IMG/VR virus record: IMGVR_UViG_3300028809_000012
Location: 942-64,941 of that record
Strand: one strand, 5' to 3'
Origin: a virus
Taxonomy: Duplodnaviria; Caudoviricetes
DNA length: 64,000 bases
The notes under the pieces are model-generated. The model had not been told where the DNA came from. It saw only the letters and a list, made by a program, of their open reading frames with translations, and did no database searches. Position numbers and translations under genes: made by a program. Within the stretch, counting starts at the first letter, position 1; every line of letters starts with the position of its first letter. Positions 46,314 through 63,500 of the stretch are shown here, one piece after another.

Positions 46314-49300
46314 ATGTCGAAGCGTGAGGACGAGGTAACTGGCTGGCTGGACTCGCTGCGGGCCGACGCCGAACGGGCCAGCGCCAACCAGCCGCAACCT
46401 GACACCGCCATTGCACCGCCCCGCAGGCGCAGGCGGCGGCGCAGCGCTCGGCAGTGGCTACAGGATACGTTCTCCCCTGAACCGGCACCGGACCTGCCCG
46501 CTGGTACGGATGTAGGCTCCAGCGCGCTCGTGCGTCAGGGCACCGTCCTCCGTGGTGCGGGCGTGCAGTCTCCTCCTGCCAACTTCCCGCGCCGCTACTT
46601 CGACCCCTACGCGGCGCTACGGGACGCGTCGGAATCGGTTCGGCCCCTGGCTGCCGATGCCACCAGTACGCCACAGAGCCGTCGTCCAGCCCGCGTTCCG
46701 GGCCGTCCCGACCCCGCGACAACGGGTACCATCGGCCCCGATACCCGCAGCCGTACGCAGCGGGCGCTGGACGAAGAGCGTTCCCGTGAGCGGCGCCAGC
46801 TCCAGGAACGACCCGCGGCAATCCGGGCGCTGGACTACGCCGGAGCCGGTGGCGCGCAGACGCTCACGCTGGGGTATCGCGACGAATTGCTGGGGGCGCT
46901 GTCTCCGGTTTCCACGGCGGAGGATTTCCGTGAACGCGAAACGCTCCGCCGGGAGGCCGCAACAGGTGGGGATCGCGCCTCCGGCATCGCGGGGGCCATC
47001 CTCGGCGCTGCCGTGCCGATTGGCGCGCAGAACGCCCTGCTGGCCCGCGGCGCGCGACTCGCTCCGGAGGGCACGGCCACGCGTGCAGCGCTGGAGAGCT
47101 TTGGCACCACCGGCGCACGCACTCGGCTGGGGGACGTGGCCCGCGGCGTGGCGGAGGGCCTGCCGTATGATCTGGCGTACGATTACGAGGACGGGGAGAG
47201 CCGCGGCGCCAACCTCGCCATCGGTGCGCTGGCCGGTGGTGTCGCGGGTGGCCTGCTGCGCCCCGGCGGTGGCCGTGCGGTTGCATCGGAAGAGCCTTTC
47301 GTTCGTCCGTCATCGCGGCGTGTCCGGCGGGGAGAGGGCATGGCGGATCTCGCGGCGGATCGAATGGACGAGATCGTGCGCCCGCGCCCCGGCCGGGAGA
47401 GCGGGTTCCTTGCGGCTGACCTGAACATCGACAGGACGCAGGAAGGCGCTGAGGTGGTGCCCACGTGGCTGCGTCAATTGGAAGCGGACGCAGCGAGGCG
47501 ACGTGCGCCGGAGGCGTCCGCTGGTGTAACGGCTCCTGCTGCGAGGGGCGGGGGTGATGAGGTTGATCTTGACGCGTGGGCGCGCGCGCTCCCGGAAGGC
47601 ACTCCCGTTCCTGGCGTGGCCCCAGCCGCGCGGAACGAATTGCCCGCCACAGCCGCAACGTCACCCGTGCCCGACGTGGCGCCTGCGCCTGCCGGGCAGA
47701 TCGACCAAGCAGCGGAGGACGCATACCGTGCCCGACGCGCCGACATCAACGGTCAGGTGCGTGCCGGAACGCTATCCCGTGAGGATGCCGACAAGCGGCT
47801 GAAGGCACTGGGCATGCGCCGCGCCGCCGAACGTCGCCGCGAGACGGGACAACTCACCGACCGGGAGCGCGCGGCCGAGGCCCGCCGCGAGGCCAGCAAC
47901 TACACCGGCAAGCGGGTGGTCGTTCAGACGGAGGACGGACCTGTGAACGGCGCGGTGATTGGCAACACTTTCGGCCGCGTGCGCGTACAGATGGAAGACG
48001 GCTCTGTCATCTCCGCGATGCCGGACGCCGTGTCCCCAGCCAACGCTGGCGCCGCCACGCCCGACCTGCTGAACCTCGTCGCCCGCACCGGAACGGGGGC
48101 GGTTGTCGGCGGCGCGGCAGGCGGGGCGCTAGATTCGGAGAATCCCACCCGTGGCGCCGCGGTGGGAGCACTGGCCGGGGCTGGACTCGGCGCCGCGTCC
48201 ATGCGCGGCGCCATCAACGCGGACGCGAATTTTGCCGCGCGCAGACGTGCCGGGCTGGAGCTGGCGGGAGACCTGCGAAACCGTCCACGCACCGAAGCCG
48301 GTTTCGTCCGCACGAACACGGATGAGATGGCGACGGCGACCCCGGCGACCACGCAGCGCAATCGTACCGGGTTCCCGCTGGCGCTGGGGCCGGATCGTCA
48401 GGTGGACCCACTGCGTCTGCCGGACACCGAGGCGCTGATGGACGCTGGCCGTGCCGCCGTGCGCCCGCTTCAGAACCAGTACGGCGCAGTGGGAGATTTG
48501 TCGCGGCTGAAGGGGCAGGCCCCCCCCGTGCCCATCTGGACGGGAAAGCGTCGAGGCTCCGACCCGACCGAGAATCCGGGCGTTTACTATCACGTAGCCC
48601 CGGAGGGGTACCGAGCTGGTGACCCTCTGAAGTCGTTCTTCAGGTTGCGCGAACAGGGGGTTGAGCCCGAATGGAAGTGGGATTTCGACTTCGCGGATGG
48701 AGGGTATGAGGACGGAACCCGCATCGCACTACACGACAATCTCCCAGAGGCCGCCGACTTCCAGAAGGAGTACGGCGGACAACTGCTGCGCGTGGAGATT
48801 CCCGAAAACAGCGGGCTTTTCGGCGGAGTGAATGCAGAGGGATATCCGTACGTCGAAGGGGAAATCCCTGCGGAGTTTATTCACCCGGCGTCCACCGCCT
48901 CGACCGGCGCCGCGGGTGATTTTGAAACGTCGCGCAACGCCTCCGCGCCCAGTCAGGGCGAGCCACAAACGCGTACGCCTCAGTTCAACCGATGGTTCGG
49001 CAACAGCAAGATTGTGGACGATAGCGGAGAACCGTTGGTGGTTTATAAGGGGATGTGGCCGCCGGATCAGCGTCAAGAGCCCATGTCTTCTATCAATCGC
49101 CGCGAATTCGGGGGGTTCCCTGCATACAATGGGGATGAGCCCGACGTAGATATCGCCGGCTTCTTTTCCTCCTCGAAGGATGTAGCCAACCAATTTGCGC
49201 AGGGTGTGAATTCAAGGGGAGGACATGGCCCTTCAGTGTATCCTGTGTACCTGTCCATCCAAAAGCCGTACGTCATCGATGCCAAGGGCAATTACGCGGG

Positions 49301-52300
49301 CGAATACCAATTTGGGCCAGAGGGCAAACCTTTCCGGGATGCCATTAGGAGCGGGAACTACGATGGTGTAGTTATCCGCAACACCGGTGATGAAGGAGAT
49401 GTTTATATCCCCCTCCATCCGGAACAGATCAAATCTGCTATTGGCAACAGTGGGAATTTCGATCCCCGCAATCCCGATATCGCAGGCGCCGCCGACCCTC
49501 GCCTGCTCGGCGCTGTAGCTCGCACCGGAGCCGGGGCGCTGGCAGGGGCGGCCATCGACCGCGAAGACCCCCTGCGTGGCGCTGCAATCGGCGCTGGCGT
49601 GGGAGCGGCGGGGCCTGCGATTGCACGCAGCGTGGCACGGCACGCCGGCAACCGGATCGGTGCCGTGGGGGACATCTCCACCCTGCGCACCAGTGCTGGC
49701 GCCCCACGCTTTTACTCGCGGCTGGAGAACGCGGTGCGGAGCGGCCAGAACGCCGCGCCCGCCTCGCAGTGGCTCCGCTACCTGGATGGCCATCCGGCCG
49801 GCATCGCGAAGGGGGAGCGCGAGTGGACCGGCGTAGACGCATGGCTCCGCGAGCGCGGCAACCAAAAGGTCACGCGCGCGGAGTTGGGGCAGTATCTTGC
49901 GCAGAACCGCGTACGGGTGGGCGAGGTAGGCTACGGCGCAACGCGAGGGAATAGGGCTCGCCTGAAAGAACTGCATGACTCCTATTCGGTAGCGGTGGAG
50001 GCGAGCAAGGGGATCGAGCAGCAGTTGCTTGCCGCATTGCGTGCTACCTCCATCGAGCCGTGGGCGGAAGCCAGCGCCATCAGCGAAATCCGGCAATGGG
50101 GTAGCGCTGCCATCGACGCCAGCGCGCACTTTCGCGACGTGCCTGTCCAGGAGCGCAGCGCGATATACCGATTGATGGATGAGTTCAAAGGCGCAGAGTC
50201 GGTAATCCAGCGGCACGACGAAGTTCTACGAGAAGCGCAGGAAGCTACCAAGGGCCGCTACGCGGGCTACCAAGTCGCCGGAGGTGAGCCGGGGACGTAC
50301 CGCGAAGTGCTGCTGACGCTGGACAACGACCGCCTGCGCTCCGCCCCCGACGACTGGCGAATGGAGCAGGATGGTAGCCTGTGGTCCGTGCGTGACGCCA
50401 ACGGTCGTCGCCTGAGTGCGAACCAGAATCGCGAGGCGGCACTACGGGAGGCACTGGACAAGTTCAACGCGGAGCGGGGCAACTCTATCTATCGCGGTCC
50501 GCATTGGGATGAGCCCAACACGATGGCCCACATCCGCTTGGACGATCGCACCCTGCCCGATGGTGAGCGTGTGCTTTTCATGCAGGAGGCACAGAGCGAC
50601 TGGCATCAGACGGGGCGGGAGCATGGCTATACAAACCAACCCTACAAGGTTGAACAGAACGGGAGCCAATGGTCAGTATTGGCTCCAGACGGTAGTGAGA
50701 TTTCCGCTTATTGGACTCGTGAGGCGGCGGAAAGCGCCGCCATTCGTGAAGTCGAGACGCGAGGTGTCCCCAACGCCCCGTTCAAGAACACGGACGAGTG
50801 GCTGGGCCTCACCCTGAAGCGCGCCGTAGATGAGGCGGTGGAAGGTGGCTACGACCGTGTAGCGTGGAGCACCGGCGACCAGATTTGGAAGGTGGTGTCC
50901 AACGACCCGAAGAATCTGGAGGGGATGCGTGAGTTCTACGACAAGATCATCCCTCGCTGGCTCGCCAAGTACGGGAAGAAGCTCGGCGTGGAGGTGGAAC
51001 CCATCCGTCTGCCGGGGATGGAAAACGAGATGTACCGGACGGAGTGGGTGGGTCCGGAGTTGACCGATAACGTCATGCGCGATATGGCGGAGCGAGCGGA
51101 GCCCTACTATCGCGCGGACATCCTGCACGTGATGAACGCCACCGCCAACCCGCAACAGCGCGCGCACGCACTTGTGCACCTAATGGAAACGGGGTCTGAC
51201 GGGTTTCGCACGGAGATGGAATACCTGCTGGGCTCTAACCCCGTGCAGCGCGTTCTGGACGAGGGGGCAGGCGGGACCAACCTGTCCATCCGCATCACGC
51301 CCGCGCTGCGGGAGACAGTGCAGCGTCAGGGGCAGGCGCTCTACAGCTTCCCCGGCCCCATCCTAGATGCGCTGAAGACGCAGGCCGGGCAGGCGGCGGC
51401 CGGCGCGGGGCTGGGGTTGGCGATGGAGCCGGACCATCCCCTCTACGGGGCGCTGGCGGGGTCCGCCGGTGCGCTGGGGGTGCGTGTAGGCTACCTGCGC
51501 ACGTCCGGGCGCAAGATGCGCAACGCGATCCGCCGTGGCACGGCACGGGTGGCGCTGTCGCAGTTCACGGACGCCCAACTGGAGCAACTGGCCAAGCGCT
51601 ACGAACGGCTGGTGCCCGACGTGGCCGCCACTATGCGTGGCGAGGTGGGAGAGCGTGCCGCCCGCCGCACCCTGACGCCGCAGCAGATCGCGGACCGGGA
51701 CGTGGCGCTGCTGGCGGAGGGGCCGCTGAAGCCCGTACGCCAGCGCGTGACGCGTACGCTCACCGCGCCGGAGCAGTCGGCCATCACCGACGCCTACCGG
51801 TCCGGGAACGAGCACGTACGCCGTCGCATCATTGATGAACTGGAGGCCGCTGCCGACGACGCGAGCCCGGCGGTGGAGCGGGCGTACTCGCGGCTCATCG
51901 GCGGGCTGGAGCTGGAAGGCTTCGATCCGCTGCCGTCCCGCGCCAACCCGGTGCTGGACGCCGGCCGCTACGCCAACCTGTCTTCCTTCGGGCTGGACCC
52001 GACCGGCGAGCGTCGTTTGGCGGACCACGTGCGCCGCATCGCGGAGGCGGAGGGGCTGGACCCCAAGCAGCGCGTCACGTGGGAGGAGACGAAGCAAGTA
52101 GCGCGCGAGCTGGGGATGCAGCCCACGGACGTGTCCGCGCTCGCCAAGTCAACCCGTGGCCTGACGGCGGCGGAACTGCTGGCCGTGCGGAATCAGGTGC
52201 GCGAGAACGTGGAGGGGATCGAGCGATCCTCGCTACGGCTGGCGCAGATGGACGGGCTGGAGACGGCGGAGGCGTCGTTGGAGAGGCAGTTGCTCCGGCA

Positions 52301-52529
52301 GGGGATCGAACAGGCGGAGGCGCAGAACACGCTGCTGCTGTCCCGCTTCATCCGCGAGCGCTCCGACGCCGGCCGCAACCTCAACGCGCTGAAGATCCTC
52401 GCTAACCAGACCATGGACCCGGTGGTGTGGCGGGAACGCGCGGCAGCGGCCCTGAAGGCTCGCGGGCTGGAGTTCCAGGAAGCGGTCCACGGCGCCCGCA
52501 TCCGTGAGATCATCGAATCCTGCGGATGA
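46314..52529 (+). CDS. Giant internal virion/polyvalent protein with ADP-ribosyltransferase-like domains
   Basis: 2071 aa; FNRWFGNSKIVDDSGEPLVVY.G...YPVYLSIQKP...YDGVVIRN...EQIKSAIGNSGNFD; FYSRLE..., QEAQSDWHQ; Gly/Ala TM-like linkers. Confidence 0.75.
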   Translation: MSKREDEVTGWLDSLRADAERASANQPQPDTAIAPPRRRRRRRSARQWLQDTFSPEPAPDLPAGTDVGSSALVRQGTVLRGAGVQSPPANFPRRYFDPYAALRDASESVRPLAADATSTPQSRRPARVPGRPDPATTGTIGPDTRSRTQRALDEERSRERRQLQERPAAIRALDYAGAGGAQTLTLGYRDELLGALSPVSTAEDFRERETLRREAATGGDRASGIAGAILGAAVPIGAQNALLARGARLAPEGTATRAALESFGTTGARTRLGDVARGVAEGLPYDLAYDYEDGESRGANLAIGALAGGVAGGLLRPGGGRAVASEEPFVRPSSRRVRRGEGMADLAADRMDEIVRPRPGRESGFLAADLNIDRTQEGAEVVPTWLRQLEADAARRRAPEASAGVTAPAARGGGDEVDLDAWARALPEGTPVPGVAPAARNELPATAATSPVPDVAPAPAGQIDQAAEDAYRARRADINGQVRAGTLSREDADKRLKALGMRRAAERRRETGQLTDRERAAEARREASNYTGKRVVVQTEDGPVNGAVIGNTFGRVRVQMEDGSVISAMPDAVSPANAGAATPDLLNLVARTGTGAVVGGAAGGALDSENPTRGAAVGALAGAGLGAASMRGAINADANFAARRRAGLELAGDLRNRPRTEAGFVRTNTDEMATATPATTQRNRTGFPLALGPDRQVDPLRLPDTEALMDAGRAAVRPLQNQYGAVGDLSRLKGQAPPVPIWTGKRRGSDPTENPGVYYHVAPEGYRAGDPLKSFFRLREQGVEPEWKWDFDFADGGYEDGTRIALHDNLPEAADFQKEYGGQLLRVEIPENSGLFGGVNAEGYPYVEGEIPAEFIHPASTASTGAAGDFETSRNASAPSQGEPQTRTPQFNRWFGNSKIVDDSGEPLVVYKGMWPPDQRQEPMSSINRREFGGFPAYNGDEPDVDIAGFFSSSKDVANQFAQGVNSRGGHGPSVYPVYLSIQKPYVIDAKGNYAGEYQFGPEGKPFRDAIRSGNYDGVVIRNTGDEGDVYIPLHPEQIKSAIGNSGNFDPRNPDIAGAADPRLLGAVARTGAGALAGAAIDREDPLRGAAIGAGVGAAGPAIARSVARHAGNRIGAVGDISTLRTSAGAPRFYSRLENAVRSGQNAAPASQWLRYLDGHPAGIAKGEREWTGVDAWLRERGNQKVTRAELGQYLAQNRVRVGEVGYGATRGNRARLKELHDSYSVAVEASKGIEQQLLAALRATSIEPWAEASAISEIRQWGSAAIDASAHFRDVPVQERSAIYRLMDEFKGAESVIQRHDEVLREAQEATKGRYAGYQVAGGEPGTYREVLLTLDNDRLRSAPDDWRMEQDGSLWSVRDANGRRLSANQNREAALREALDKFNAERGNSIYRGPHWDEPNTMAHIRLDDRTLPDGERVLFMQEAQSDWHQTGREHGYTNQPYKVEQNGSQWSVLAPDGSEISAYWTREAAESAAIREVETRGVPNAPFKNTDEWLGLTLKRAVDEAVEGGYDRVAWSTGDQIWKVVSNDPKNLEGMREFYDKIIPRWLAKYGKKLGVEVEPIRLPGMENEMYRTEWVGPELTDNVMRDMAERAEPYYRADILHVMNATANPQQRAHALVHLMETGSDGFRTEMEYLLGSNPVQRVLDEGAGGTNLSIRITPALRETVQRQGQALYSFPGPILDALKTQAGQAAAGAGLGLAMEPDHPLYGALAGSAGALGVRVGYLRTSGRKMRNAIRRGTARVALSQFTDAQLEQLAKRYERLVPDVAATMRGEVGERAARRTLTPQQIADRDVALLAEGPLKPVRQRVTRTLTAPEQSAITDAYRSGNEHVRRRIIDELEAAADDASPAVERAYSRLIGGLELEGFDPLPSRANPVLDAGRYANLSSFGLDPTGERRLADHVRRIAEAEGLDPKQRVTWEETKQVARELGMQPTDVSALAKSTRGLTAAELLAVRNQVRENVEGIERSSLRLAQMDGLETAEASLERQLLRQGIEQAEAQNTLLLSRFIRERSDAGRNLNALKILANQTMDPVVWRERAAAALKARGLEFQEAVHGARIREIIESCG

Positions 52530-52685
52530 AATAGCGCAGGCCCTCGCATCCGGTGATCCGGAGGGGGCCTGCCGCCGTAGGGTTGCTAACCCTCTAGCCG
52601 TTCCTGTAACCCCTGCGAAGGGGTGGGGCGATCATTCGGAACGACTCCGACGCCAGCAAGATAACTTCTTCCTTAGCGTAACGCA

Positions 52686-54770
52686 ATGGCGCAGGCAACG
52701 AACTGTCAGTTGGAGATGGCCAACTACGTCTCCGGGCTGGAGAGAAGCACCAACGTCCGCAAGATCACTACCCTGTGGAAGTCGATGCTCCTCGCCAACC
52801 CTGCGTCCCGGCTGGCGGACGTGGTGTCCAACTCCATCATGGCGGGAGCGGAAATCGCCAAGCACCCCATCGCCTCCGGCATCGACCGACTGGCGGCGCG
52901 GCGCACGGGCATCCGTACGCGGATGTTCGACGGCAGCGATCTCGGGCGCGCGTCGTGGGACGCGGTGCAGAAGACGCCGCGGGACGTGAAATTGGCGATG
53001 CAGGGGATCGACACGTTTCAGGGCAACCGCGCACTGGACATGTACCAAGGTGAGACACAGTACGAAACGCCCCTGCTCAACGCCATCACCAAGACGGTGT
53101 TCCGGCTCACGCAGGCCACGGATCGTCCCTTCAAGCGGCTGGCCTTCGAACGGTCCTTGCGCGAGCAGGCGCGACTGCTGGGCGTACGGGAGGGACTGTC
53201 CGGGGTGGAACTGGAAGATTTCATCGCCCGCACCCTGCCCCGGATGCCGGACGACGCCACCATGCGCGCCTATCACGACGCGGACGTGGCGACCTTCGCG
53301 GACAACACGCCCATGGCACGCCTGCTCACCGGCGCCAAGCGCGCCGTGAGCCAGAACAACCCGGTGGGTGAGCTGGCGGCGGACGTAGTGCTCCCCTTCA
53401 CCCGCGTCCCGTCCAACGCCGCGCACCGGGTGGTGGAGTACAGTGGCGCCGGGGTGGCGATGGGGTACGCCAACCTGCGCCGCGCCTTCCGGGCGGCCAC
53501 CAACGGAGACGTAAGCGAGGCCGCCGATCTCCAGCGCTACGCCGTGGACCAGATGGGCCGCGGCTCTGCTGGCGTCGGCGCGCTGATGGTGGGCTGGTGG
53601 TTGTCGGAGCGCGGGATGGTGTCGCTGGGCTATCCTGGCACCGATCAGGGCGAGGCGGGGAGGTGGGAGGCGACGGGGAAGCAAGACTACTCCGTCCGCA
53701 TCGGGGACCGCTGGTGGAGCGTGAAGAAGATGGCGCCCTTCGGCCCACTGCTGGTGGTGGGCGCCTACGCCCAGCAAGCGGCGCAGGCCAAGGAGAACGC
53801 CCAGCGTGACGCTTACCTTGCCACGCGGGCGCAGGGCGGCACGGAACAGGAAGCACAGGAGGCGGCTGCCGCGGCACGCGGGGAGGGTGGGGAGAACATC
53901 GGCGGGCTCGCGAGCGGTCTTGTGGGCGGCATCTTCAACACGATGGCGGACCAGCCTGCGTTCACGGGGGCGCGGCAGATCGAGGAGCTGCGGCGCGACC
54001 CGGCCGGCGGTGGGGCCAAGTGGGTGGAGCGCATGGCCGCCAGCTTCATCCCCCCGGTAATCGCGCGCTGGGCCACGATGGTGGACCCGGTGGTGCGGGA
54101 GACGCGGGACGGCGACAGGCTGGGCTCTATCCTACAGGGCCGCGTGCCTGACGCGATCCAGGCGCGTATTCCCTATGCCTCACGTGGCCTACCCGTGCGG
54201 CGTGACGCGCTGGGCGACGAGGTGCCCAAGGAGGACAGCTTCGCCGGCAACTTCCTCGATCCGTGGAATTCCAAGCTGGACCGCAGCACGCAGGACGAGG
54301 TGCGCCGGGAGCTGGACCGACTGGAAGTGGGAATCACCCGCCTGCGTCCCAATCCCGGCGAGGACCGGGAGGAGTTCTATCGGCGCCGGGAGTCGTTCGG
54401 CACCATGCTGCGTGGCGTCCTCGCGGACGTGGTGACGAGCGACGAGTACCAGTCCATCGCAGAGGCGCGGCGCTGGCAGACGCGGAACATCCCCGGCTCT
54501 ACTCCCCGCGACGTGGAGCGGATGATCCGCAACGAACAGCGCGCGTTCCTGGAGGAAGCCATCAGCGGCGTGCGCAGATACTTTTCCGCCCAGCGCAAGG
54601 CCGGCAACTTCAGCGGGGAATACGCGCTACCGACACCCGAAGAGGCGGAGCTTGCCACGGAACGCGCTCTGTCGCGCCCCGGTCCCTCCGGTGTGTTGCC
54701 GGACGCCGCAGAGCTTGCCAGCGAGATCGAGATGGAAGAGGCGGGCGCCCTCGCCGCGATTGACAACTAA
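52686..54770 (+). CDS. Large virion protein with LPD38-like C-terminal region
   Basis: DRPFK..AF, VLPFTRVPSN, DYSVRIGDRW.S, QARIPY....LPVRRDALG. Confidence 0.65.
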   Translation: MAQATNCQLEMANYVSGLERSTNVRKITTLWKSMLLANPASRLADVVSNSIMAGAEIAKHPIASGIDRLAARRTGIRTRMFDGSDLGRASWDAVQKTPRDVKLAMQGIDTFQGNRALDMYQGETQYETPLLNAITKTVFRLTQATDRPFKRLAFERSLREQARLLGVREGLSGVELEDFIARTLPRMPDDATMRAYHDADVATFADNTPMARLLTGAKRAVSQNNPVGELAADVVLPFTRVPSNAAHRVVEYSGAGVAMGYANLRRAFRAATNGDVSEAADLQRYAVDQMGRGSAGVGALMVGWWLSERGMVSLGYPGTDQGEAGRWEATGKQDYSVRIGDRWWSVKKMAPFGPLLVVGAYAQQAAQAKENAQRDAYLATRAQGGTEQEAQEAAAAARGEGGENIGGLASGLVGGIFNTMADQPAFTGARQIEELRRDPAGGGAKWVERMAASFIPPVIARWATMVDPVVRETRDGDRLGSILQGRVPDAIQARIPYASRGLPVRRDALGDEVPKEDSFAGNFLDPWNSKLDRSTQDEVRRELDRLEVGITRLRPNPGEDREEFYRRRESFGTMLRGVLADVVTSDEYQSIAEARRWQTRNIPGSTPRDVERMIRNEQRAFLEEAISGVRRYFSAQRKAGNFSGEYALPTPEEAELATERALSRPGPSGVLPDAAELASEIEMEEAGALAAIDN

Positions 54771-54837
54771 AAGCCCCTCTTGCGGTTCATGGGGGAGATG
54801 GCTAATCGTACGCAACATCCGTGTGGGGGTGCTCGAT

Positions 54838-54896
54838 GGTGAAACGTACAACAGGCTACGTGGGGATTCCCCACGTAGCCTGTTGTACGTTTCACC
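54838..54896. terminator. 29-bp perfect inverted repeat between convergent units
   Basis: ggtgaaacgtacaacaggctacgtgggga-t-tccccacgtagcctgttgtacgtttcacc. Confidence 0.7.
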
Positions 54897-54900
54897 CCAA

Positions 54901-55146
54901 AGGACGTCTGTTCTGCTCCGGCTCGATTGGAGGCTTAGGTTATCTTCGGCGGCACGGCTCGTTCTTTGTCTACGGATGCCTATGGTAAAGCGACTCGCTA
55001 GAAAATTACGGATAGCTCGGTGCTTACGGCTCGCTCGTTCTCAGCGGGTGACTCCTTTCGCTCGGGCTCGCTGATACCATTCGGGTTGCTCCAGTATCTA
55101 GGCTCGCTCTGTAGCTTCGGGTGATTCTACTGTGGAGCGGCTCGTC
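54901..55146 (-). ncRNA. TIGR-like array D (7 units)
   Basis: Edge repeats at 54919, 54955, 54991, 55027, 55064, 55100, 55138 (period 36,36,36,37,36,38) with alternating loop repeats. Confidence 0.88.
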
Positions 55147-55159
55147 CGTTCTAGCCCCC

Positions 55160-55432
55160 TCAGGTTGGTTCCGCCGGCCCCTTGGTGGTTGGCGAGGTGA
55201 CCGTCATGGGCGAGCAGGTGGCGTTGCAGGTGTTCATGGGCACTGCATCGGTCCCATACCCGCAGGTCTGGTAGTGGCAGGTGTTGTATCCGTCGTCGGT
55301 GTAGTGGTTCGGGCACGTCATGCAGGTGTTCAGCCCCGACGCCGCGTGCACCGTCCCCAGCCCTTCCGGCGCCGCGCCAGCATCCATCGACTCCACCGCC
55401 AGCGCGTCCAGATGTAGCTTGTGTCTCCGCAT
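55160..55432 (-). CDS. RiPP (pinensin-like lanthipeptide) precursor-like peptide
   Basis: Leader KLHLDALAVESMD...GTVHA followed by Cys/Thr-rich core (six TC dipeptides). Confidence 0.65.
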   Translation of the reverse strand: MRRHKLHLDALAVESMDAGAAPEGLGTVHAASGLNTCMTCPNHYTDDGYNTCHYQTCGYGTDAVPMNTCNATCSPMTVTSPTTKGPAEPT

Positions 55433-55467
55433 ATGATTCCCGTATACATGTGATTTCCCGTGGGTGC

Positions 55468-55653
55468 CTACAGCCCAGCCTCTTCTTTCTTGCGCTCGGC
55501 AATGATCCGAACCGCCTCGTTGCGGTAGCGCCGCGCGCGTCCCTGCTGCCTCTGCCGCTTGGACGCCTGACGCGCGGTGGGAGGGTCGATGCCGGCCAGT
55601 GCGCAGGCGGCACGGAAGACGGGGCTGGTCTGCGCGAATTCCTTGTTCGTCAT
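55468..55653 (-). CDS. Small basic phage protein
   Basis: MTNKEFA...FRAACALAGI.PT.RQASK. Confidence 0.55.
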   Translation of the reverse strand: MTNKEFAQTSPVFRAACALAGIDPPTARQASKRQRQQGRARRYRNEAVRIIAERKKEEAGL

Positions 55654-55712
55654 CAATATCTTCGATTCTCCGTCATCGGAGGTTGGTCCCGCGGTGCCAC
55701 CGCGTTGCCGGT

Positions 55713-55946
55713 TTACAACAGGTGCCACAACTCAACGCCCATCTGCTCCATGGTGCCGAACAGGACGGCGCGGGCGGTGTTGGTGTACGCGTAGTAGCGC
55801 GGATGCAGTTTCAGCAACACTATGTTGGTGCCCACGACCACGCCAACATCCTCCCACATAATCTTCAAGAAGTCCGGACGCCCCCTCAACGCGTCCACGA
55901 CCCTCGCCTGAATCTCCCGCTCCAAATCCGCGTTCGCGTCGCTCAT
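55713..55946 (-). CDS. Hypothetical protein
   Basis: GAGG RBS; operon context. Confidence 0.45.
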   Translation of the reverse strand: MSDANADLEREIQARVVDALRGRPDFLKIMWEDVGVVVGTNIVLLKLHPRYYAYTNTARAVLFGTMEQMGVELWHLL

Positions 55947-56260
55947 GATCCCGCCTCTCTGTCCTTGTGTGTGCACCCCACTAACTCGTGTGCAGTTGGG
56001 ATCGCCTTGGCCCCCACCCGTTCGCGCGCCAACGCATACAAACGATCCGCGTCACCGCACCGGAAAGATTCCTGGAATGCGCCGGCAACGGCGTCGTCCA
56101 CAACCACCACCGTGGCTACGTGTCGGATGCTGTCGGTGCTCTTCCACGTTTCGTACTCGTCAATCGACAACAGCAAATCTCCCAACCCTGATGTACAAAT
56201 GTCCAAGAGGCGACGATCCAGCGCCTCCAGAAACTTCTCGTATTTTTCGTCATTCAACAT
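55943..56260 (-). CDS. Hypothetical protein
   Basis: First ORF after promoter at 56318. Confidence 0.5.
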   Translation of the reverse strand: MLNDEKYEKFLEALDRRLLDICTSGLGDLLLSIDEYETWKSTDSIRHVATVVVVDDAVAGAFQESFRCGDADRLYALARERVGAKAIPTAHELVGCTHKDREAGS

Positions 56261-56317
56261 AGTGTATGGCCCTGCTTTCTGAAATGTGATCGTGTCCCAC
56301 CGCCCGGCTTCTTAAGG

Positions 56318-56345
56318 AAGATAATTCAACCATAGCAGAAGTCAA
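56318..56345 (-). promoter_or_regulatory. Promoter TTGACT-N16-TATCTT
   Basis: Faces the operon ending in the RiPP-like gene and array D. Confidence 0.6.
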
Positions 56346-56355
56346 GGACTGCGTT

Positions 56356-56886
56356 TCACGTCTCCAGCAGTCCCACCTGATCTGGTATCCCGGCGACACG
56401 GAGGACTGGCGGCACCCCGTCCCACAGCACGTGCGTCTGGTACTCGAACGTGGCGTCCAGCGCCTCCTGCGCCGCCTGTATGATCTCGCACGCCTCGTCC
56501 TCCCGCAGCTCCCGCCCGAACATGCCGGACGCCAAAACGGCCACGGGAACGGCGCGCTGGTCCACCTCGACCTCAACCACCCCCGCGGCGTGCAAGCTGT
56601 CCTGCACGCGATCCACGAGCGGCGCATGGGCCTTACCGCGAGCACGGGCACGGCGGGCGGCGATGCTCCCCGCGCCCTCGTCCCGCAGGCGGTCGCGTTC
56701 GCCGGCCAGCAGCTTGTCCAGCATGCGACGGTCCGTGACGCGGTGACTGTTCTCCAGCGCACAATCCACGCAGCCGGCCGTGTACTCGGCGTGCGCGCAT
56801 CCGCTGGCGGGACCACTGGCCCACGGACGGTTGAGCGCTTCCGTCAGGCTGCGGGCGAAGCGGGCGGGATCCAGTCCCTTGCTCAC
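56356..56886 (-). CDS. Hypothetical protein
   Basis: Leftward operon; GTG overlapping upstream stop. Confidence 0.45.
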   Translation of the reverse strand: MSKGLDPARFARSLTEALNRPWASGPASGCAHAEYTAGCVDCALENSHRVTDRRMLDKLLAGERDRLRDEGAGSIAARRARARGKAHAPLVDRVQDSLHAAGVVEVEVDQRAVPVAVLASGMFGRELREDEACEIIQAAQEALDATFEYQTHVLWDGVPPVLRVAGIPDQVGLLET

Positions 56887-57257
56887 TGGCCTTCCTCGCT
56901 CTTTTCCTGTTCGATCTTGAGCAGGGCCAGCCACGACGCGATGGCGAGCGGTGCGTTACCGTGCTTGGGCCACGTCTCCGGATCATCGCCGTTCATCTCC
57001 GCCACCATCCGGCGCAGGGTGTCTATGTCCTCCAGCGCCCGTGCGAGGGGATGCTTGGGGCAGACACGGACATGCTGGTGCAGGATCTCTTGCATGGAAG
57101 GCTGTACCGAATCGGCAGGTCCGTAGCGATGCCCGCAGTACACGCAGTTGACGTACATGCCGGACTGAAGATCGCTTACCCACCTTCGCAGGCTCTCTAT
57201 CTGCGCCCGAAGCGCCTCGTTTTCCTGACGCAGCGCGAATTCAAAATCCTCTGTCAT
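56883..57257 (-). CDS. Hypothetical Zn-binding phage protein
   Basis: CVYCGHRYGP...HVRVCPKHP; GGAGG RBS. Confidence 0.6.
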   Translation of the reverse strand: MTEDFEFALRQENEALRAQIESLRRWVSDLQSGMYVNCVYCGHRYGPADSVQPSMQEILHQHVRVCPKHPLARALEDIDTLRRMVAEMNGDDPETWPKHGNAPLAIASWLALLKIEQEKSEEGQ

Positions 57258-57694
57258 TCCGGTCCTCCCACGTTTTTGAGTAGCCGCAGCGCCCATCCTA
57301 CCTTGGCCGTGAACTGAGATTCGGTGTCGATGCCCTTCAGGTAGCGCCGCAGGAGGGGACTGAACTCCGCCGTACGCCCCCACAGCCCGCCGCGTGGATG
57401 ATCCGCCGGGCGCGCGATGTGGCGGCGCAACGTGCGGATGCTGTCGGCAAGCTGCCAACGCGCGCGCAGAGATCCGCCGCGTATCCACTCCACCGGCTGC
57501 GTGACTTGCATGCGATACAGCAACACAGCGTTGCGGATAACACGATTCAGCATGCGCTGCATCCGTCCGTCCAGTTTTGGCGGCATCAGCAGCGCGCGCT
57601 TCATCCGGTACGCCTGCTCGCCGCGGGCCTTCAGCGCATAGTCCACCTCCGCCCAGCGCTCGTGCAGCTCCAGCCAGGAATGCCGCGGGATCAT
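57254..57694 (-). CDS. Hypothetical protein
   Basis: Coupled ORF. Confidence 0.45.
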   Translation of the reverse strand: MIPRHSWLELHERWAEVDYALKARGEQAYRMKRALLMPPKLDGRMQRMLNRVIRNAVLLYRMQVTQPVEWIRGGSLRARWQLADSIRTLRRHIARPADHPRGGLWGRTAEFSPLLRRYLKGIDTESQFTAKVGWALRLLKNVGGPE

Positions 57695-58084
57695 GGGGTA
57701 GCCTCGGGCACGTTCGGGCGAATCAGCACATGCCTGCCGGTGGATTTGCGGTCCTCTTTCGCCATCGATACCGCTGCGTCGATGGGTGTCGCATGCCCGA
57801 CAATCTCTCCGGTGTCTTGGAAAACAAGCTCCCAACAATCTTGGATTCGATTCGTGGTCATGGCTGCACCACAGATGGGTGGATGGTGTAAACTGCGCCG
57901 CCCGCCGAGTAGCCCCACGCTGTCCGTTCTCCGCGGACCCGGATGCCCAGCTCACGCTTCGCGGCTTCCTCGCTGCCGAACGTGCCCCACACAACCGTGT
58001 CGTCCTCCCTACTGTAGCGCAGCACCATCCACACCTCCTGCGTCGGCCGCTCTCCCACTACGGCCTCTTGCATCTCTTCTTCGT

Positions 58085-58528
58085 TCATCGGATCGCCTCC
58101 AGATTCAGCCGCAATGTCTCATAACCCCCCAACACGTACCGCAGGCCGGCTTCCTCACACGCGCGCTGGAAATCCTTCTGTTCCTCGCTCTGGCGCCCGC
58201 CCTTGCCCTTGGCCTCCCAAAAGAGCAGGCCGTGCTTGGGATGGATCGCGGTCACATCGGGGAATCCGGGGTCTTGCGTCCCCCGCGCGTCACGCTGTCC
58301 CACACGCCAGACTCGCCATCCCTGCGCCTCAAACAGGGCGATCCCGGACCGCTGCTCGTCCGCTTCAGCCCGCTCCGGCGGCACCGAAGGCGGTCGTCCC
58401 GGCGCGGTGCGGTGCTTTGCGTTCTCGGCCCCCAGCATGGCGCTGATGCGGTCCTTCAGCGCGTCTCCGGCAAGGGGGCTGTCCATCAGGCGGCGCAGCT
58501 CGTCCGGCGACATCTCCTCTAGGCGCAT
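58085..58528 (-). CDS. VRR-NUC (PD-(D/E)xK) nuclease
   Basis: PGFPDV...FWEAKGKGGRQSEEQKDF. Confidence 0.8.
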   Translation of the reverse strand: MRLEEMSPDELRRLMDSPLAGDALKDRISAMLGAENAKHRTAPGRPPSVPPERAEADEQRSGIALFEAQGWRVWRVGQRDARGTQDPGFPDVTAIHPKHGLLFWEAKGKGGRQSEEQKDFQRACEEAGLRYVLGGYETLRLNLEAIR

Positions 58529-58849
58529 CCAAACTTCTCCTTCAGGCGAGAGGCGAGTTCCTTGACAAGCAAGATGTCCGTACACCGCTCACAGATGTAA
58601 TCGTATTCACAATCACATCCGCGCTCCAACTCAGTCACCGCTTCAATCAAAAGCTTTACATCTTCATCCTTCATCGTGGCCTCCACGTCGTTGCGTGCAC
58701 CATGGCCGGCGTCTCCGACAGCCGCTTACGCCCCATCTCCCGCATCAGGTCCAATCGGTTGCGTTCCCGCTGCGTGGCGAGGAACGCATACCACCCCAGC
58801 GCGCCCCATAGGACCGTGACGGTGAGGGCGGCGGGTACGAGGAGGTGTT

Positions 58850-59248
58850 TCACGGCTCGGCGCTCCCCGTGGCGAGTGCGTACACCTTCTCCACCTCGTC
58901 CGGCAGCAGCAGTGCGTTGTCGTCGGACAGGCGGCGCGCCTTGCGGATGATGGCGGCGATGTCCATCAACCGCGCCTCGGCGGCCAGAAGCCGCGCTTCC
59001 GCGGAGGAGTTGTCCTTGAAGATTGGCTCCTCAATTACAGTGGGCGTGTCGGTCCACACCACATCGAAGGCTCCGCGGGGGCAATCCGCCTCCAGCGGCG
59101 CCGCGATGATGCTGTTGGGCATGTCGATCCACGCCATGCGGTCTGCCTCCGCCCAGCGCTTGTGCAGATCCAGCGGCGCCATCTCCGCCTCACCCGGCAT
59201 GGCGTCCATCGGGCCGGGGTTCCCGTGTGTTGTCGTGATCGTCTTCAT
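58850..59248 (-). CDS. Hypothetical protein
   Basis: Leftward ORF; start uncertain. Confidence 0.35.
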   Translation of the reverse strand: MKTITTTHGNPGPMDAMPGEAEMAPLDLHKRWAEADRMAWIDMPNSIIAAPLEADCPRGAFDVVWTDTPTVIEEPIFKDNSSAEARLLAAEARLMDIAAIIRKARRLSDDNALLLPDEVEKVYALATGSAEP

Positions 59249-59658
59249 GTTTTGATCGTAATGGGGAGACATGGGCATAGGACACCTGCCGTTGCACTGA
59301 ACCCACGAGTTCCCGTCCGTCATTCCGCACTTTGGACAAAACACCGGGTCCGTCCTGCCTGAGACACATAGACGGGTGAGAAGGGGACGGCTTGTTTCCA
59401 TCGTCTTCATGGCAGGTATTAGTATGCGGAAAGTGCTTCGTCTCGACACTCGCGGCACAGCTCGCCGTCCGTCTCGTGGTCGCCAATTCCTATCCCACAG
59501 CCACAGTCCTCCACCAGCACGTCACCGCAGCCTGCGCACACGATACTATGCTTGTCCACCGGTTCCAGCGGCGGGTGTGCGTCCGATTCGCTGGGCTCGT
59601 CCTCGAAGTCGTACTCGTAGAGCATACCCATCCTTGGTTGCCGTCGTTGATAGCAGCC

Positions 59659-59688
59659 TTGACAACACCGTTGCCACAATAGTAAGTT
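59659..59688 (+). promoter_or_regulatory. Promoter TTGACA-N18-TAAGTT
   Basis: Upstream of Cro-like gene at the point where gene direction diverges. Confidence 0.55.
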
Positions 59689-59745
59689 GGCTTCGACCGA
59701 CGCGCAAGGGTTGTGTCGGGCGTCACCAACAGCAGGAGGAATGCG

Positions 59746-60030
59746 ATGCCGCACGAGGCGGCGGATGACGGACGAGAGGCGATGATCCAGCGGGCGGCGA
59801 TGAACGAGCTGCTGCGAAACCGCTCGCCGGGGGAGCGCATCCGCTTCCTCCGCATCGAGCGGCGCATGTCGCAGACGGACCTTGCCGACGCGGTGAAGAA
59901 CCTCGGCGCGTCCTGTAGCGGGAAATGGAAGATAAGCCGGTGGGAAGCGGGGATGCGTCCCCGTGAGCAGGCGAGAAAGGCGCTGGCACAGGTGCTCGGC
60001 GTGGAAGAAAGCGTACTTTTCAACCAGTAA
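59746..60030 (+). CDS. Cro/XRE-family HTH regulator
   Basis: RIRFLRIERRMSQTDLADAV...ISRWEAG..P...LAQVLGV; AGGAGG RBS. Confidence 0.85.
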   Translation: MPHEAADDGREAMIQRAAMNELLRNRSPGERIRFLRIERRMSQTDLADAVKNLGASCSGKWKISRWEAGMRPREQARKALAQVLGVEESVLFNQ

Positions 60031-60045
60031 CAGAGGCAAGAGACG

Positions 60046-60765
60046 ATGGCGATTCCGGTTCCCGAAGATGGCGGCTTCACCCGGCACCTGCCCCCGGCGG
60101 GGCGCAGCAACGCGGTGTGCGTGGACGTGCACTACCTCGGCTTGGTGACGCAGAAGAAGTTCCAGTCCACCGAAACTGAGGAGGTGCCGATGCTTCTCCT
60201 CAGTTTCGCCGTGGGTGATCGGCAGGGCAACGCGTACCACAATCCGGAGATGGGCTGGCCGCTTACCGTGTCCAACCGCTACCGCTTCTCCCTGGCGCCG
60301 CAGGCGAAGCTGCGCAAGGTGATCGAGCGCTGGTGCAACGGCGGACGCCCGCTCACGGAGGAGCAGACCGCGCAGTTGAAGAAGGACATCGAAAAGCCGC
60401 TGCTGGGACGCACGGCCGAGATTTCCATCAGCCACACGGAGGACGGCAGGTTCGCCAACATCGACAACGGCGGGCAATGGATCGAGGCGCTGCCGAACGG
60501 CTACACGCCGATGCAGATCCCCAGCAACTACGTGCGGATCAAGGATCGCTCTCCGCGGGACGAGCAGGGCTCGTCCCAGCCCAGCGCCAGCCGTTCGGAT
60601 GCTGCCTCGCCCGCACGACAAGCGGCGTCAGATCCGTTCGGTGGTGGCGACGATCCCTTCGGCGGTCCGATGTCACCGCCCATCGGCGCCGGGCCGCGCG
60701 CGAACACGTACGACAACTATCAGGCGCCACCGATGAACGACGACGGATTGGATATTCCTTTTTAA
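60046..60765 (+). CDS. Putative ssDNA-binding/replication protein
   Basis: Beta-rich N-domain (LPPAG..AVCVDV..LG), disordered tail ending DDGLDIPF. Confidence 0.7.
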   Translation: MAIPVPEDGGFTRHLPPAGRSNAVCVDVHYLGLVTQKKFQSTETEEVPMLLLSFAVGDRQGNAYHNPEMGWPLTVSNRYRFSLAPQAKLRKVIERWCNGGRPLTEEQTAQLKKDIEKPLLGRTAEISISHTEDGRFANIDNGGQWIEALPNGYTPMQIPSNYVRIKDRSPRDEQGSSQPSASRSDAASPARQAASDPFGGGDDPFGGPMSPPIGAGPRANTYDNYQAPPMNDDGLDIPF

Positions 60766-60781
60766 CTTCCCTTTTGGCGTT

Positions 60782-60842
60782 GTCCTCGCTAAGTTTGCCT
60801 CTGATAAGGGCGGGCCTTATCAGAGGCAAACTTAGCGAGGAC
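60782..60842. terminator. 28-bp perfect inverted repeat
   Basis: gtcctcgctaagtttgcctctgataagg-gcggg-ccttatcagaggcaaacttagcgaggac. Confidence 0.6.
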
Positions 60843-60846
60843 GGAC

Positions 60847-61299
60847 TTGGTGAACCAGAAACGATGCAGGGGAATCTGCGGTAGAATTCTGCCGTTATCT
60901 GAATTTTATCGTCATCCCAAGATGGCGGACGGTCACCTTAACCATTGTAAACGGTGCAAAACCAAATACGCCAAAGATCGCTATGCCGAAGGAATGCAGG
61001 ATTCATCATGGGTTGACAAGGAAAGAAGGCGCGCGAGGAGCAAATACCACCGTCTTTACGCCTCTGGACGTAAGCGGGTATGGGTGGAACAACCGCCGCA
61101 AATCAAGCGGTCAGCTCGCGCCATGCTTCGTGTCGCGGTTTTGAGCGGGAGAATACAAAAACCAAGCAATTGCGAACAATGTGGTAAAGCTGCTGGAGGT
61201 AGAAATTTGCATGGACACCACGAAGATTACTATCGTCCGCTTGATGTGCGATGGCTTTGCGCGAAGTGTCACACACAGGAACACTTGTCTGCTCCTTAA
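60847..61299 (+). CDS. HNH endonuclease-like protein (lower GC)
   Basis: C..C...EFY.H....DG....CK.C; CEQCG...HGHHEDYYRPLDVRWLCAKCH; start uncertain. Confidence 0.75.
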   Translation: MVNQKRCRGICGRILPLSEFYRHPKMADGHLNHCKRCKTKYAKDRYAEGMQDSSWVDKERRRARSKYHRLYASGRKRVWVEQPPQIKRSARAMLRVAVLSGRIQKPSNCEQCGKAAGGRNLHGHHEDYYRPLDVRWLCAKCHTQEHLSAP

Positions 61300-61555
61300 C
61301 ACCCAACCCCATCTGACACATGATAGAACTCGCTAGGCACCTCGTTGGTGGCGAGCGCGTGCAGCGGCCCACCGATATTACCCGCACGGGACGTGTGATC
61401 GAATGCTGTCAGTTGTTCGCGACCGTGCGCTGGAGCGACGGCAGCACGGAGGATGTGGACACGTTGTTCCACGGCTTGGATATCGAACGCAGGGGCGGAT
61501 CGTACGGCTATCGCTACATCTGCGCGCTCCCCGTCCCCACCAACTGAGCGCACCC

Positions 61556-61978
61556 ATGAGTGAATTCGTGCTGGACCGTGCAGCGATAACCATCGCCGTG
61601 GACTGGTGGGTGAACGCCATCCGGGGTGGCGCCAAGCAGGACAACGGCGATGCCATGCAATCCATGCTTACGGCGTTCGTGGCCGCGGAGATTGGCCCCC
61701 CAACGGAGTACCAGATCGATGTGTTTCGCACGAAACTCAACACCTTCCTTGTCGGCCTGTTGCTGTCCCCATCCACGCCGCGCTTCCACGACAGGTTGTT
61801 GAGCGTCGATTACCAACCGGAAGGAACTCTGTTGGCGGCAGCCAACCACGCCAACCTTAGCGCGCTGCACTTTCCCGTGAAAACGGTGATGTGGTTGAAG
61901 AACGACTCGATTCGCGTGCGCCACGGATACGGCGCATCCATCCAAACGCTTTGGGGGAAGGAATTGGAACAAGAATGA
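61556..61978 (+). CDS. Hypothetical phage protein
   Basis: AVDWW...DNGD...SVDYQP...FPVKTVM...V..GYGA. Confidence 0.6.
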   Translation: MSEFVLDRAAITIAVDWWVNAIRGGAKQDNGDAMQSMLTAFVAAEIGPPTEYQIDVFRTKLNTFLVGLLLSPSTPRFHDRLLSVDYQPEGTLLAAANHANLSALHFPVKTVMWLKNDSIRVRHGYGASIQTLWGKELEQE

Positions 61979-62595
61979 GCATCCCGTTCCCAGCCTACAA
62001 CGAACCCGTGGGCCCCGACCGCGGCAACCTGTACTACCGCCCCACCGAACTTTCGGAGGAGGTGGACGCGCTCACCGGGTACGACCGTGCGGCCATGTTC
62101 GAGGGCTTCGACGCCGCGGTCCGGCTCCGGGCGCAGGCCAAGCAGAAAATCGGTCAACTGCAATCCAGGATCGCCGGACTGGCGGCGCGCTTCGAGACGC
62201 ACGGCACCATGCCGTCGCAGGCGGAGCACGAACGCACGCAGCTCCTTGCCGAGATCATGGAAGAGGTGCGGCAGCGCTACTACTCCAACCCGGACACCGA
62301 GAAGGTACCGCCGAAGCGCGCCGGGGAGGAACCAACCACCAAGATCATCCAGTTGACGCAGGGCGAGGTGGAGGCGCGCGCCAAGGCCGACCCGCGGTAC
62401 AAGGTCCGGCTGGAGGGGGACGCGCGCCAGCGGGAGCAGCACGCGCTACTGAAGGCGGAGCTGTCGAAGGCGTGGGCGGAGTACGAGGAGTACAAGGAGT
62501 CCGGCGAGCTGATCCGCCTGCAACTGGAGGACCGGAAGTCTCTCATCTTCTACGCCTCCAACGATCCTCACCGCCGGCAGCCACACCAACCCTGA
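61975..62595 (+). CDS. Coiled-coil hypothetical protein
   Basis: Helical, EARAKADPRY. Confidence 0.55.
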   Translation: MSIPFPAYNEPVGPDRGNLYYRPTELSEEVDALTGYDRAAMFEGFDAAVRLRAQAKQKIGQLQSRIAGLAARFETHGTMPSQAEHERTQLLAEIMEEVRQRYYSNPDTEKVPPKRAGEEPTTKIIQLTQGEVEARAKADPRYKVRLEGDARQREQHALLKAELSKAWAEYEEYKESGELIRLQLEDRKSLIFYASNDPHRRQPHQP

Positions 62596-62607
62596 AGGAA
62601 GCGAACC

Positions 62608-63346: not shown

Positions 63347-63500
63347 CGCTTGTGCAACACCTGTAGGATGATGTAAGTTTCTCCTCGTTCGCCCCGCCCG
63401 ACACCTTCCCTCGTCGGCGTAAACACAAAAAGACGACGCGCCCCCTGTGCCTGCGAAGCTAAGGAGCGCGTCGTCCAAGAGACGAAAGGTACACGACAAG

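Follow-up and report, generated by a model that had tools for sequence, protein, structure and literature searches.

The seven repeat units that lie at 54893–55147 on the minus strand of the soil phage sequence analysed here, referred to as array D, are likely to be a functional TIGR array of the dual-repeat type. On the evidence of its sequence, array D truly belongs to the dual-repeat TIGR family, being matched by a profile of the phage's other arrays and conserved in a relative phage, and by analogy with described systems it very probably provides guides, in trans, for the one TasA of the phage, whose gene is ~45 kb away (45.4 kb from the tas stop codon, a distance taken one way within an incomplete record). 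The window, by which the whole 64,000-nt stretch of DNA analysed is meant, comprises all but 941 nt of a 64,941-nt IMG/VR record that is estimated to be 66% complete. TIGR-Tas systems were first described in 2025, and array D leaves the kind of the system unchanged; a TasA with an alpha-CTD-like domain and remote, separately promoted arrays are organisational twists on a known system.

One repeat family in four arrays

On the minus strand the units of array D start at 55147, 55109, 55073, 55036, 55000, 54964 and 54928, with lengths of 38, 36, 37, 36, 36, 36 and 36 nt, respectively. They are built from two alternating 10-nt repeats, an edge repeat (consensus GAGCGAGCCG) and a loop repeat (consensus GAGTCACCCG), in the order GAGCGAGCCG-like sequence, 8–10 variable nt, GAGTCACCCG-like sequence and 8 variable nt; the column consensus reads 10 conserved, 8 variable, 10 conserved and 8 variable positions, with both repeats starting with (G/A)AG and ending with CCG and a T being frequent just 3' of each. 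Units D1–D5 are well formed, the loop repeats of D6 and D7 are degenerate, and the first edge of the array deviates in its first three letters. Past D7 a terminal edge repeat, degenerate toward its 3' end, is read from the sequence at 54883–54892 (minus strand); it resembles the consensus in its 5' part only and overlaps the 5' arm of the terminator hairpin described below, and arrays A, B and C have the same kind of ending, an edge whose 3' part is lost. The original prediction had placed seven units here, in agreement with the minus-strand parse and the autocorrelation. Its near-exact period of 36 nt holds as a period close to 36, not as an exact one, with units of 36–38 nt; its 9/9/9/9 architecture can be read as 9/9/9/9 or as 10/8/10/8 depending on where the boundaries are placed, the column consensus giving the latter; and its range of 54838–55146 takes in a palindrome besides the array.

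Over 54901–55160 the autocorrelation amounts to 0.429 at lag 36, 0.356 at lag 72 and 0.393 at lag 18, and to 0.19–0.34 at the remaining lags between 5 and 79, and 36-nt rows of 54893–55147 align on two conserved blocks. Array D was not reported by Tandem Repeats Finder, a search of Rfam over 54600–56500 returned no match on it and no CRISPR repeat family, and a two-core pattern allowing up to 2 mismatches gave 8 matches, four of them in array D, where 3.8 were expected, which is weakly above chance. A sliding lag-36 autocorrelation over the whole window was confounded by codon periodicity. Since Tandem Repeats Finder is silent and the two-core pattern weak, the case for array D rests on its family relation.

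The family consists of four arrays that have one edge repeat and one loop repeat in common. Array A (9471–9591, plus strand; 3 units and a degenerate terminal edge) begins 8 nt past the tas stop codon and is co-directional with tas. Arrays B and C are ~16 kb from tas, both on the minus strand: array B (25038–25488) has 12 units and a terminal edge that runs into a hairpin at 25002–25043, and array C (25867–26087) has 6 units and begins directly downstream of a promoter-like site at 26121–26093. In all four the first element is an edge repeat and the last an edge without its 3' part, and in B and D a strong hairpin follows directly after the last edge. A sequence-only profile (R1) was made from 20 units of arrays A–C, with D left out, and the whole window was scanned with filters off. 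It matched the D units on the minus strand with E values of 1.3e-4, 5.4e-3, 9.1e-3, 0.03, 0.11, 0.25 and 2.2, scores lower than those of most B units; every match with E < 0.7 in the 64-kb window falls inside the four arrays, the best match outside them having E = 0.76. The claim that array D carries guides of a TIGR system is thus upheld, with repeats common to the array directly behind the one Tas gene, and the unit parse gives the 28 guide units at three loci that had been counted (3 + 12 + 6 + 7). The proposed search for further arrays or a second Tas gene yielded neither, the R1 scan finding no fifth array in the 64-kb window and the whole record holding a single Tas homologue, in keeping with the one Tas-like gene that had been described.

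The leftward unit, its conservation and its direction

A promoter-like site at 56318–56346, three small genes, array D and a terminator form, as read from the DNA, one leftward unit. The promoter-like site (minus strand) belongs to a CTTGACTT-N14-17-TANNTT class, met 6 times in the window where 0.00 are expected from 100 shuffles, with variants of it besides, and it is the probable start of the array D unit, the assignment being a consensus match only. A promoter scan found one site in 54600–56500 (56345, minus) and one in 24900–26300 (26120, minus), both singly weak with ~0.5 expected by chance. Three minus-strand ORFs follow, namely the 87-aa ORF (55713–55976), which opens the leftward unit within the window and has a homologue in the relative phage, the 86-aa ORF (55468–55728) and the 90-aa ORF (55160–55432), the last gene before array D, with a Cys-rich C-terminal half. 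Their third-position GC is 0.74–0.85 and none has a Pfam or PHROG family. Array D begins 12 nt past the stop codon of the 90-aa ORF, so that its predicted place directly downstream of that gene is confirmed; the description of the gene as RiPP-like is not, with no Pfam or PHROG family found for it and the ORF absent from the relative.

The unit is closed by a palindrome at 54838–54896 with 28 nested pairs and a 3-nt loop, likely a bidirectional terminator; it is real as predicted, the stem being 28 bp and not 29 bp. Its fold has a free energy of -58.6 kcal/mol (z = -8.8), and 0 of 200 shuffles fold as well. It has no T-run and was not called by a terminator scan, and Rfam gave sub-threshold miRNA-hairpin matches on it only, which were rejected. 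The rightward gene 52686–54770 converges on the hairpin and ends 68 nt before it, so the hairpin probably terminates transcription in both directions. That array D closes a leftward unit, as had been proposed, therefore agrees with the promoter-like site at 56345 and the palindrome at the end, both kept in the relative. The suggestion that arrays under different promoters supply different guide sets at different infection stages fared worse: no site was found at 8091 by the promoter scan, and the sites at 26120 and 56345, behind which arrays C and D lie, belong to one class, which leaves stage-specific guide sets unsupported.

The relative, G001, is a viral contig of 64,331 nt that is syntenic with the whole window at 72–98% nucleotide identity and contains all four arrays. 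All seven units of D are present in its array D (D'), which departs from D by point differences, in repeats as well as in spacers, and by a single 1-nt insertion; its hairpin differs from that of D by compensatory changes. Homology to G001 stops at 55174; the relative is without the 90-aa ORF, a counterpart of the 86-aa ORF was not seen in its operon, and D' lies ~45 nt after the homologue of the 87-aa ORF, with the CTTGACTT promoter of the array D unit kept. The other arrays differ by whole units, array A having 3 units here and 6 in G001, array C 6 here and at least 8 in G001, and array B several units that were replaced between the two phages. The pair can be regarded as a small natural experiment, in which whole units were gained or lost in A–C and D was kept.

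Across 16 orthologous units of the two phages, the conserved repeat columns differ at 1/128 positions, against 15/192 in the other repeat columns and 11/240 in the spacers (Fisher p = 0.016), that is, 26/432 positions elsewhere than in the conserved repeat columns; the test is partly independent, the conserved columns having been chosen on this phage's own arrays A–C. For array D alone the counts are 0/56 in the conserved columns and 8/84 at other repeat positions. The overall divergence of array D is about that of its flanking block (94.6% identical between the two phages), so selection is visible only in the choice of columns, and this pattern, seen in two related sequences, points to constraint on the box-like repeat positions.

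The same comparison bears on whether array D could be a decaying orphan, a relic TIGR array no longer giving working guides. Such a relic might be expected from the degenerate loop repeats of D6 and D7, with R1 scores dropping toward the 3' end (E 0.25 and 2.2), from the absence of unit gain or loss in D between phages whose arrays A–C differ by whole units, and from the self-target scans, which found no significant target within the window. It is nevertheless unlikely, given that the conserved repeat columns of D are unchanged (0/56) while other repeat positions are not (8/84), that four of the seven D units match the A–C profile at E <= 0.03, and that both promoter and terminator of D are kept in the relative. 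A working array accordingly remains the preferred reading of D.

Gene context by itself leaves the strand ambiguous, and five observations, on distant relatives, array A, array ends, promoter direction and the ORF before array B', settle that array D is read leftward. In two viral contigs whose Tas proteins are 32% and 27% identical to that of this phage (L008 and L009), the arrays are co-directional with tas, with an edge repeat TGCGAGCCA and a loop repeat TGAAnAACCA that both start with TG and end with CCA; these repeats and the edge of this phage share a GCGAGCC core, and at two loci from genome bins (L153 and L158) the array is likewise co-directional with tas, with the edge core in the same sense. 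The motifs published for TIGR repeats, box D at the start and box C at the end, are likewise TG and CCA (PMC12045711). Array A lies behind tas and in its sense in both this phage and the close relative, the promoter-like sites adjoining C and D face leftward, and in G001 a minus-strand ORF ends exactly where array B' starts. The leftward reading originally put forward is thus corroborated by the strand sense of relatives, by promoter direction and by the layout of the array ends.

The opposite reading, with the plus strand functional and array D read rightward downstream of the gene 52686–54770, would put B, C and D each behind a co-directional gene (22703–25000, 25537–25848 and 52686–54770), of which the one between B and C, 25537–25848, is conserved. 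It is very improbable all the same: the edge-core sense would be contrary to the tas-co-directional arrays of L008, L009, L153 and L158 and to the motifs published for the two ends of a TIGR repeat, array A would become antisense to tas in both phages, the 28-bp hairpin would stand upstream of D and block entry, the promoter-class sites beside C and D would both point the wrong way, and in the relative a minus-strand ORF ends exactly at the start of array B'.

The TasA effector and candidate targets

The tas gene (8132–9463, plus strand; an ATG at 8174 is an alternative start) encodes a 443-aa protein of the TasA type with a coiled coil and a Nop domain. Searched with phmmer against PDB sequences, it matches TaTasR (9mty, E 5.4e-18) and TasH (21kl, E 1.5e-5). 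An AlphaFold model built with 30 homologues has a mean pLDDT of 80.9, exceeding 90 in the core, which begins at about residue 145, and low across the N-terminal 140 residues. The best PDB matches of this model in Foldseek are TasH (9w04, E 3.4e-9) and TasR (9mty, E 9.2e-9), both with a probability of 1.00, ahead of the IS621 recombinase. No nuclease domain was found by Pfam, homologue alignment or Foldseek; Pfam gave a sub-threshold match to Transposase_20. The N-terminal extension of ~145 aa contains a helix-hairpin-helix resembling the C-terminal domain of RNA polymerase alpha (residues 54–97; Pfam 28.6 bits, cut-off 23.8). Among the 120 matches listed, 115 homologues are ~300–400 aa long and cover 51–73% of the query, and P0002–P0006 only (422–451 aa) reach at least 90% coverage and hence include the extension. 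Homologue coverage and domain results together describe a TasA-type effector with an added N-terminal domain. In the sequence alignment Y421 and H428 correspond to Y289 and H296 of SpTasH, the residues that cut its precursor (PMC13421893); Y421 is nearly invariant (at least 90% conserved among 30 homologues), and a Tyr/His dyad has been reported to mark dual-repeat systems (Xu 2026, bioRxiv 10.64898/2026.09.09.750476).

From published work on other Tas proteins we infer how transcription, processing, loading and the outcome of DNA binding may proceed. A leftward transcript would start at the CTTGACTT-class promoter at 56346, run through the three small ORFs and the seven guide units, and end at the 28-bp hairpin terminator. 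The single TasA (8132–9463), encoded ~45 kb away, would bind this precursor in trans, and its Tyr421/His428 dyad would cut inside each edge repeat, releasing tigRNAs of ~36 nt in which spacer A, the loop repeat and spacer B, in this order, are flanked on each side by half an edge. A TasA dimer with one tigRNA would then bind double-stranded DNA, the two short spacers pairing with adjacent stretches of opposite strands. Without a nuclease domain, TasA would be expected to bind the DNA or to block transcription, and not to cleave.

Candidate targets were sought within the window. It has been described that the displaced strand exits the flanking duplex 3'-ward beside the spacer B heteroduplex (PMC13421893), and the target geometry inferred from that source is spacer B followed by the reverse complement of spacer A. 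With this geometry and up to 2 mismatches, 4 sites were found in the window against 1.2 +/- 1.5 in re-paired controls, which is not significant; a first pass with both geometries, gaps of 0–2 and up to 2 mismatches had given 7 sites against ~4.4 in controls. Two of the four were near-matches of array D guides, D1 with 14/16 letters at the start codon of gene 33430 and D6 with 15/17 inside a gene at 24625, and were set aside, array D near-matches not being above chance. The remaining two are matches of guide B6 to a 15-nt motif that occurs three times (26131, 35440 and 44280) against 0.01 expected; each copy precedes a rightward gene block, with CATCCT or CATCGT 17 nt later, and B6 agrees with 15/17 letters of this promoter-like motif. 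Guide B4 matches 13/16 letters at the 5' end of tas. When up to 3 mismatches were allowed, 4 of 12 sites were near promoter landmarks against 0.45–0.64 in 200 controls (P(>=4) 0.01–0.02); this enrichment was rejected as evidence and kept as a lead only, because two landmark classes were added after the hits had been seen.

It could be speculated that the four arrays constitute a phage-wide guide regulon, some of whose guides, such as B6 and B4, act on the phage's own control regions as an RNA-guided developmental switch, an idea we regard as doubtful. If it were true, tas would share its transcription unit with array A, array C would have a promoter to itself and array D would form the 3' end of an accessory operon, so that the guide repertoire of one TasA would follow which operons are on, and remote arrays would account for some Tas genes that seem to have no array.

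Remote arrays and known systems

Arrays of one system can thus be 16 kb and 45 kb from tas, with a promoter-like site and a terminator of their own. A search confined to the surroundings of tas would overlook them and arrive at too small a guide repertoire. Scanning IMG/VR for three GCGAGCC cores at a 34–38-nt period gave at least 120 stretches on at least 113 contigs, and among the matches listed six contigs carry two or three separate stretches. A Tas homologue was found in all five of the multi-array contigs checked, the distance between array and tas being ~18.6 kb in G004 and G008, 5.1 and 9.6 kb in G007, 9.1 and 5.0 kb in G005, and 5.6 kb in G006. The remote arrays of G005–G008 are pattern matches; visual inspection was confined to G004, whose remote array comprises ~19 units and shares its repeats with the arrays beside tas in that contig. 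Remote arrays therefore recur in other phage contigs, 45 kb being the largest distance seen, and the arrays of the more distant relatives G002 and G003 all lie beside tas. The findings in viral contigs also weigh against the most improbable alternative, that the repeats are not guide RNAs and owe their period to chance, serve as DNA sites for a protein, or make up a CRISPR-like or other repeat element: the silence of Tandem Repeats Finder and Rfam on array D and the weak excess of the two-core pattern (8 vs 3.8 expected) would suit it, but profile matches are confined to four arrays sharing repeats with the array that abuts the Tas gene, the same edge core recurs at the same period in at least 120 stretches of viral contigs, a Tas homologue accompanies 5/5 multi-array contigs checked, and there is neither a cas-like gene nor a single long repeat.

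Crude array detection on 19 tasA loci from bacterial genome bins found almost nothing, a method that would also miss array D; R1 applied to 17 of the 19 found units beside tas in 2, and on 5 whole genomes it gave no match among the 150 of thousands of candidates that were scored. As to habitat, DNA contigs of three soil-metagenome studies contain at least half of the sampled words of 54000–57000, and in four soil-metagenome DNA runs both the phage and the variant of its relative are present, one run having both versions of array D. The phage is known from metagenomes only, and a megablast search of 44000–64000 against a deposited-phage collection gave no match. Of the 19 genome-bin loci with a TasA relative, 16 are titled as Gemmatimonadota lineages (a Longimicrobiales lineage was checked), which suggests Gemmatimonadota as a candidate host phylum.

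Orphan CRISPR arrays are arrays distant from any cas genes. Array D resembles them as a guide array away from its effector gene, presumably served in trans, and differs in its two short alternating repeats, split spacer, lack of cas genes and effector of another family. A CRISPR array proper was considered for D and rejected, in view of the two different 10-nt repeats, the 8–10-nt spacers, the Nop-domain effector and the absence of an Rfam CRISPR repeat.

Dual-repeat TIGR arrays have been defined by alternating repeats of 8–12 nt, spacers of ~9 nt and units of ~36 nt, and their ends by deviation in the 5' part of the first edge and degeneracy in the 3' part of the last, beyond which a terminator lies (PMC12045711); the dual-repeat guide is described as a uniform 36 nt (Xu 2026, bioRxiv 10.64898/2026.09.09.750476). 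Array D has 10-nt repeats, 8–10-nt spacers and 36–38-nt units, a deviant first edge, and a truncated last edge that runs into a 28-bp hairpin lacking a T-run. Edge and loop share their start and end motifs, in letters that differ from the TaTasR motifs, and the phage's Tas protein has both the Nop domain and, on the C-terminal loop of that domain, the Tyr/His processing dyad. Adjacency to tas holds for array A and not for array D, a feature that reflects how loci were mined and not the mechanism. The TIGRFinder pipeline annotates arrays "surrounding tas loci" (Xu 2026, bioRxiv 10.64898/2026.09.09.750476). Remote arrays are not described in the main texts of Xu 2026 and Faure 2025, on which point the supplements may bear, and "distant" is used in those main texts of organisms only; a literature search on TIGR arrays as orphans, TIGR-Tas targets or lysogeny found nothing relevant.

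The closest likeness in organisation is to dual-repeat TIGR-TasA systems such as FpTIGR of Flavonifractor plautii (Faure 2025, PMC12045711), with a phage-encoded Nop-domain Tas without nuclease, two alternating short repeats, two short spacers and ~36-nt units, end-deviant edges before a terminator, and repeats that share start and end motifs. In contrast to those systems, remote arrays are present here, whereas the arrays of that paper lie upstream or downstream of tas, with 5-kb flanks mined; the repeats read (G/A)AG...CCG and not UG...CCA; the units are 36–38 nt and not a fixed 36; and TasA has an extra helix-hairpin-helix. SpTasH of Salicola phage CGphi29 (PMC13421893; bioRxiv 10.64898/2026.08.11.744272) is likewise phage-encoded and dual-repeat with 8-nt spacers, and its Y289/H296 dyad, which aligns with Y421/H428 here, cuts inside the edge repeat; it differs by its HNH nuclease, with which it cleaves DNA, whereas searches of the present TasA gave no nuclease domain. 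TasA proteins and nuclease-dead TasR have been reported to be RNA-guided transcriptional repressors, and it has been proposed that phage-encoded systems may silence host genes or competing elements or regulate the viral cycle (bioRxiv 10.64898/2026.09.09.750476). By analogy with these repressors the nuclease-less effector of this phage would be expected to bind and not to cut; the repressors tested in that work are of the stem-loop kind, without the Y/H loop, whereas the system to which array D belongs is a dual-repeat one with the dyad.

Promoter-like and operator-like sequences

The promoter-like family CTTGACTT-N14-17-TANNTT has 6 matches in the window against 0.00 expected, located at 3180, 15368, 17947 and 21109 on the plus strand and at 26121 and 56346 on the minus strand. 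The 30-mers at 15368 and 17947 are identical, and each of these sites faces a leftward partner (at 15414 and 17993, respectively), the two partners being also identical to each other; a divergent promoter-like module is thus present twice, with its copies about 2.6 kb apart. A further 15-nt sequence, TATCGACCAAAAACA, occurs in the window in three identical copies, compared with 0.01 expected (26131-26145, 35440-35454 and 44280-44294), all of them in intergenic gaps ahead of a rightward gene block and all followed, 17 nt downstream, by CATCCT or CATCGT. This motif is a candidate for a second promoter or operator class. Two of the TATCGACCAAAAACA sites are matched at 15 of 17 positions by guide B6, encoded by the unit of array B at 25305.

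The Tas protein and the start of its gene

Residues 1-145 of the nuclease-less Nop-domain protein TasA (window 8132-8570) form an N-terminal extension, shared by only 5 of the 120 homologues listed, with a helix-hairpin-helix resembling that of the RNA polymerase alpha C-terminal domain (Pfam PF03118, above cut-off); the structure model has low confidence across this extension. Four residues, C286, C289, H305 and C314, are invariant among 30 TasA homologues and belong to a beta-rich segment inserted into the Nop domain (residues 286-314, window 8987-9073), where they look like a zinc-binding ribbon. Guide B4, which comes from the array B unit at 25378, agrees at 13 of 16 positions with 8125-8140, a stretch at the extreme start of the tas gene and just past its putative promoter; this suggests a possible autoregulation of tas through guide B4, with the match itself within chance expectation.

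Array units and the surroundings of arrays B and C

Among the 26 units parsed from the four guide-RNA arrays A-D of the window, 12 measure 37 nt, 10 measure 36 nt, 3 measure 38 nt and 1 measures 34 nt, the variation arising from the spacers. Array C opens with an edge repeat that occupies the loop of a hairpin with a 9-bp stem (26069-26089), located approximately where transcription from the 26121 promoter is predicted to begin. The gap separating array B from array C contains a 103-aa ORF (25537-25848, plus strand) that has a predicted hydrophobic helix and is conserved at the protein level in the related viral contig G001; encoded on the strand opposite to both arrays, it would run antisense to any transcript that extended from C into B.

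Gene content of the array D operon and an ORF at 58085-58585

A 166-aa ORF (58085-58585, minus strand) matches phrog_93 (E 6.1e-7) and phrog_5702, which are phage endonuclease/Holliday-junction-resolvase families. The two ORFs nearest array D, encoding a cysteine-rich product of 90 aa and another of 86 aa (55160-55728), are absent from G001, whose counterpart operon carries a different 106-aa ORF. Judged by this sequence comparison, the predicted array D operon is one of variable small-gene cargo ahead of the array, as opposed to its promoter, array and hairpin, which are kept between the window and G001.
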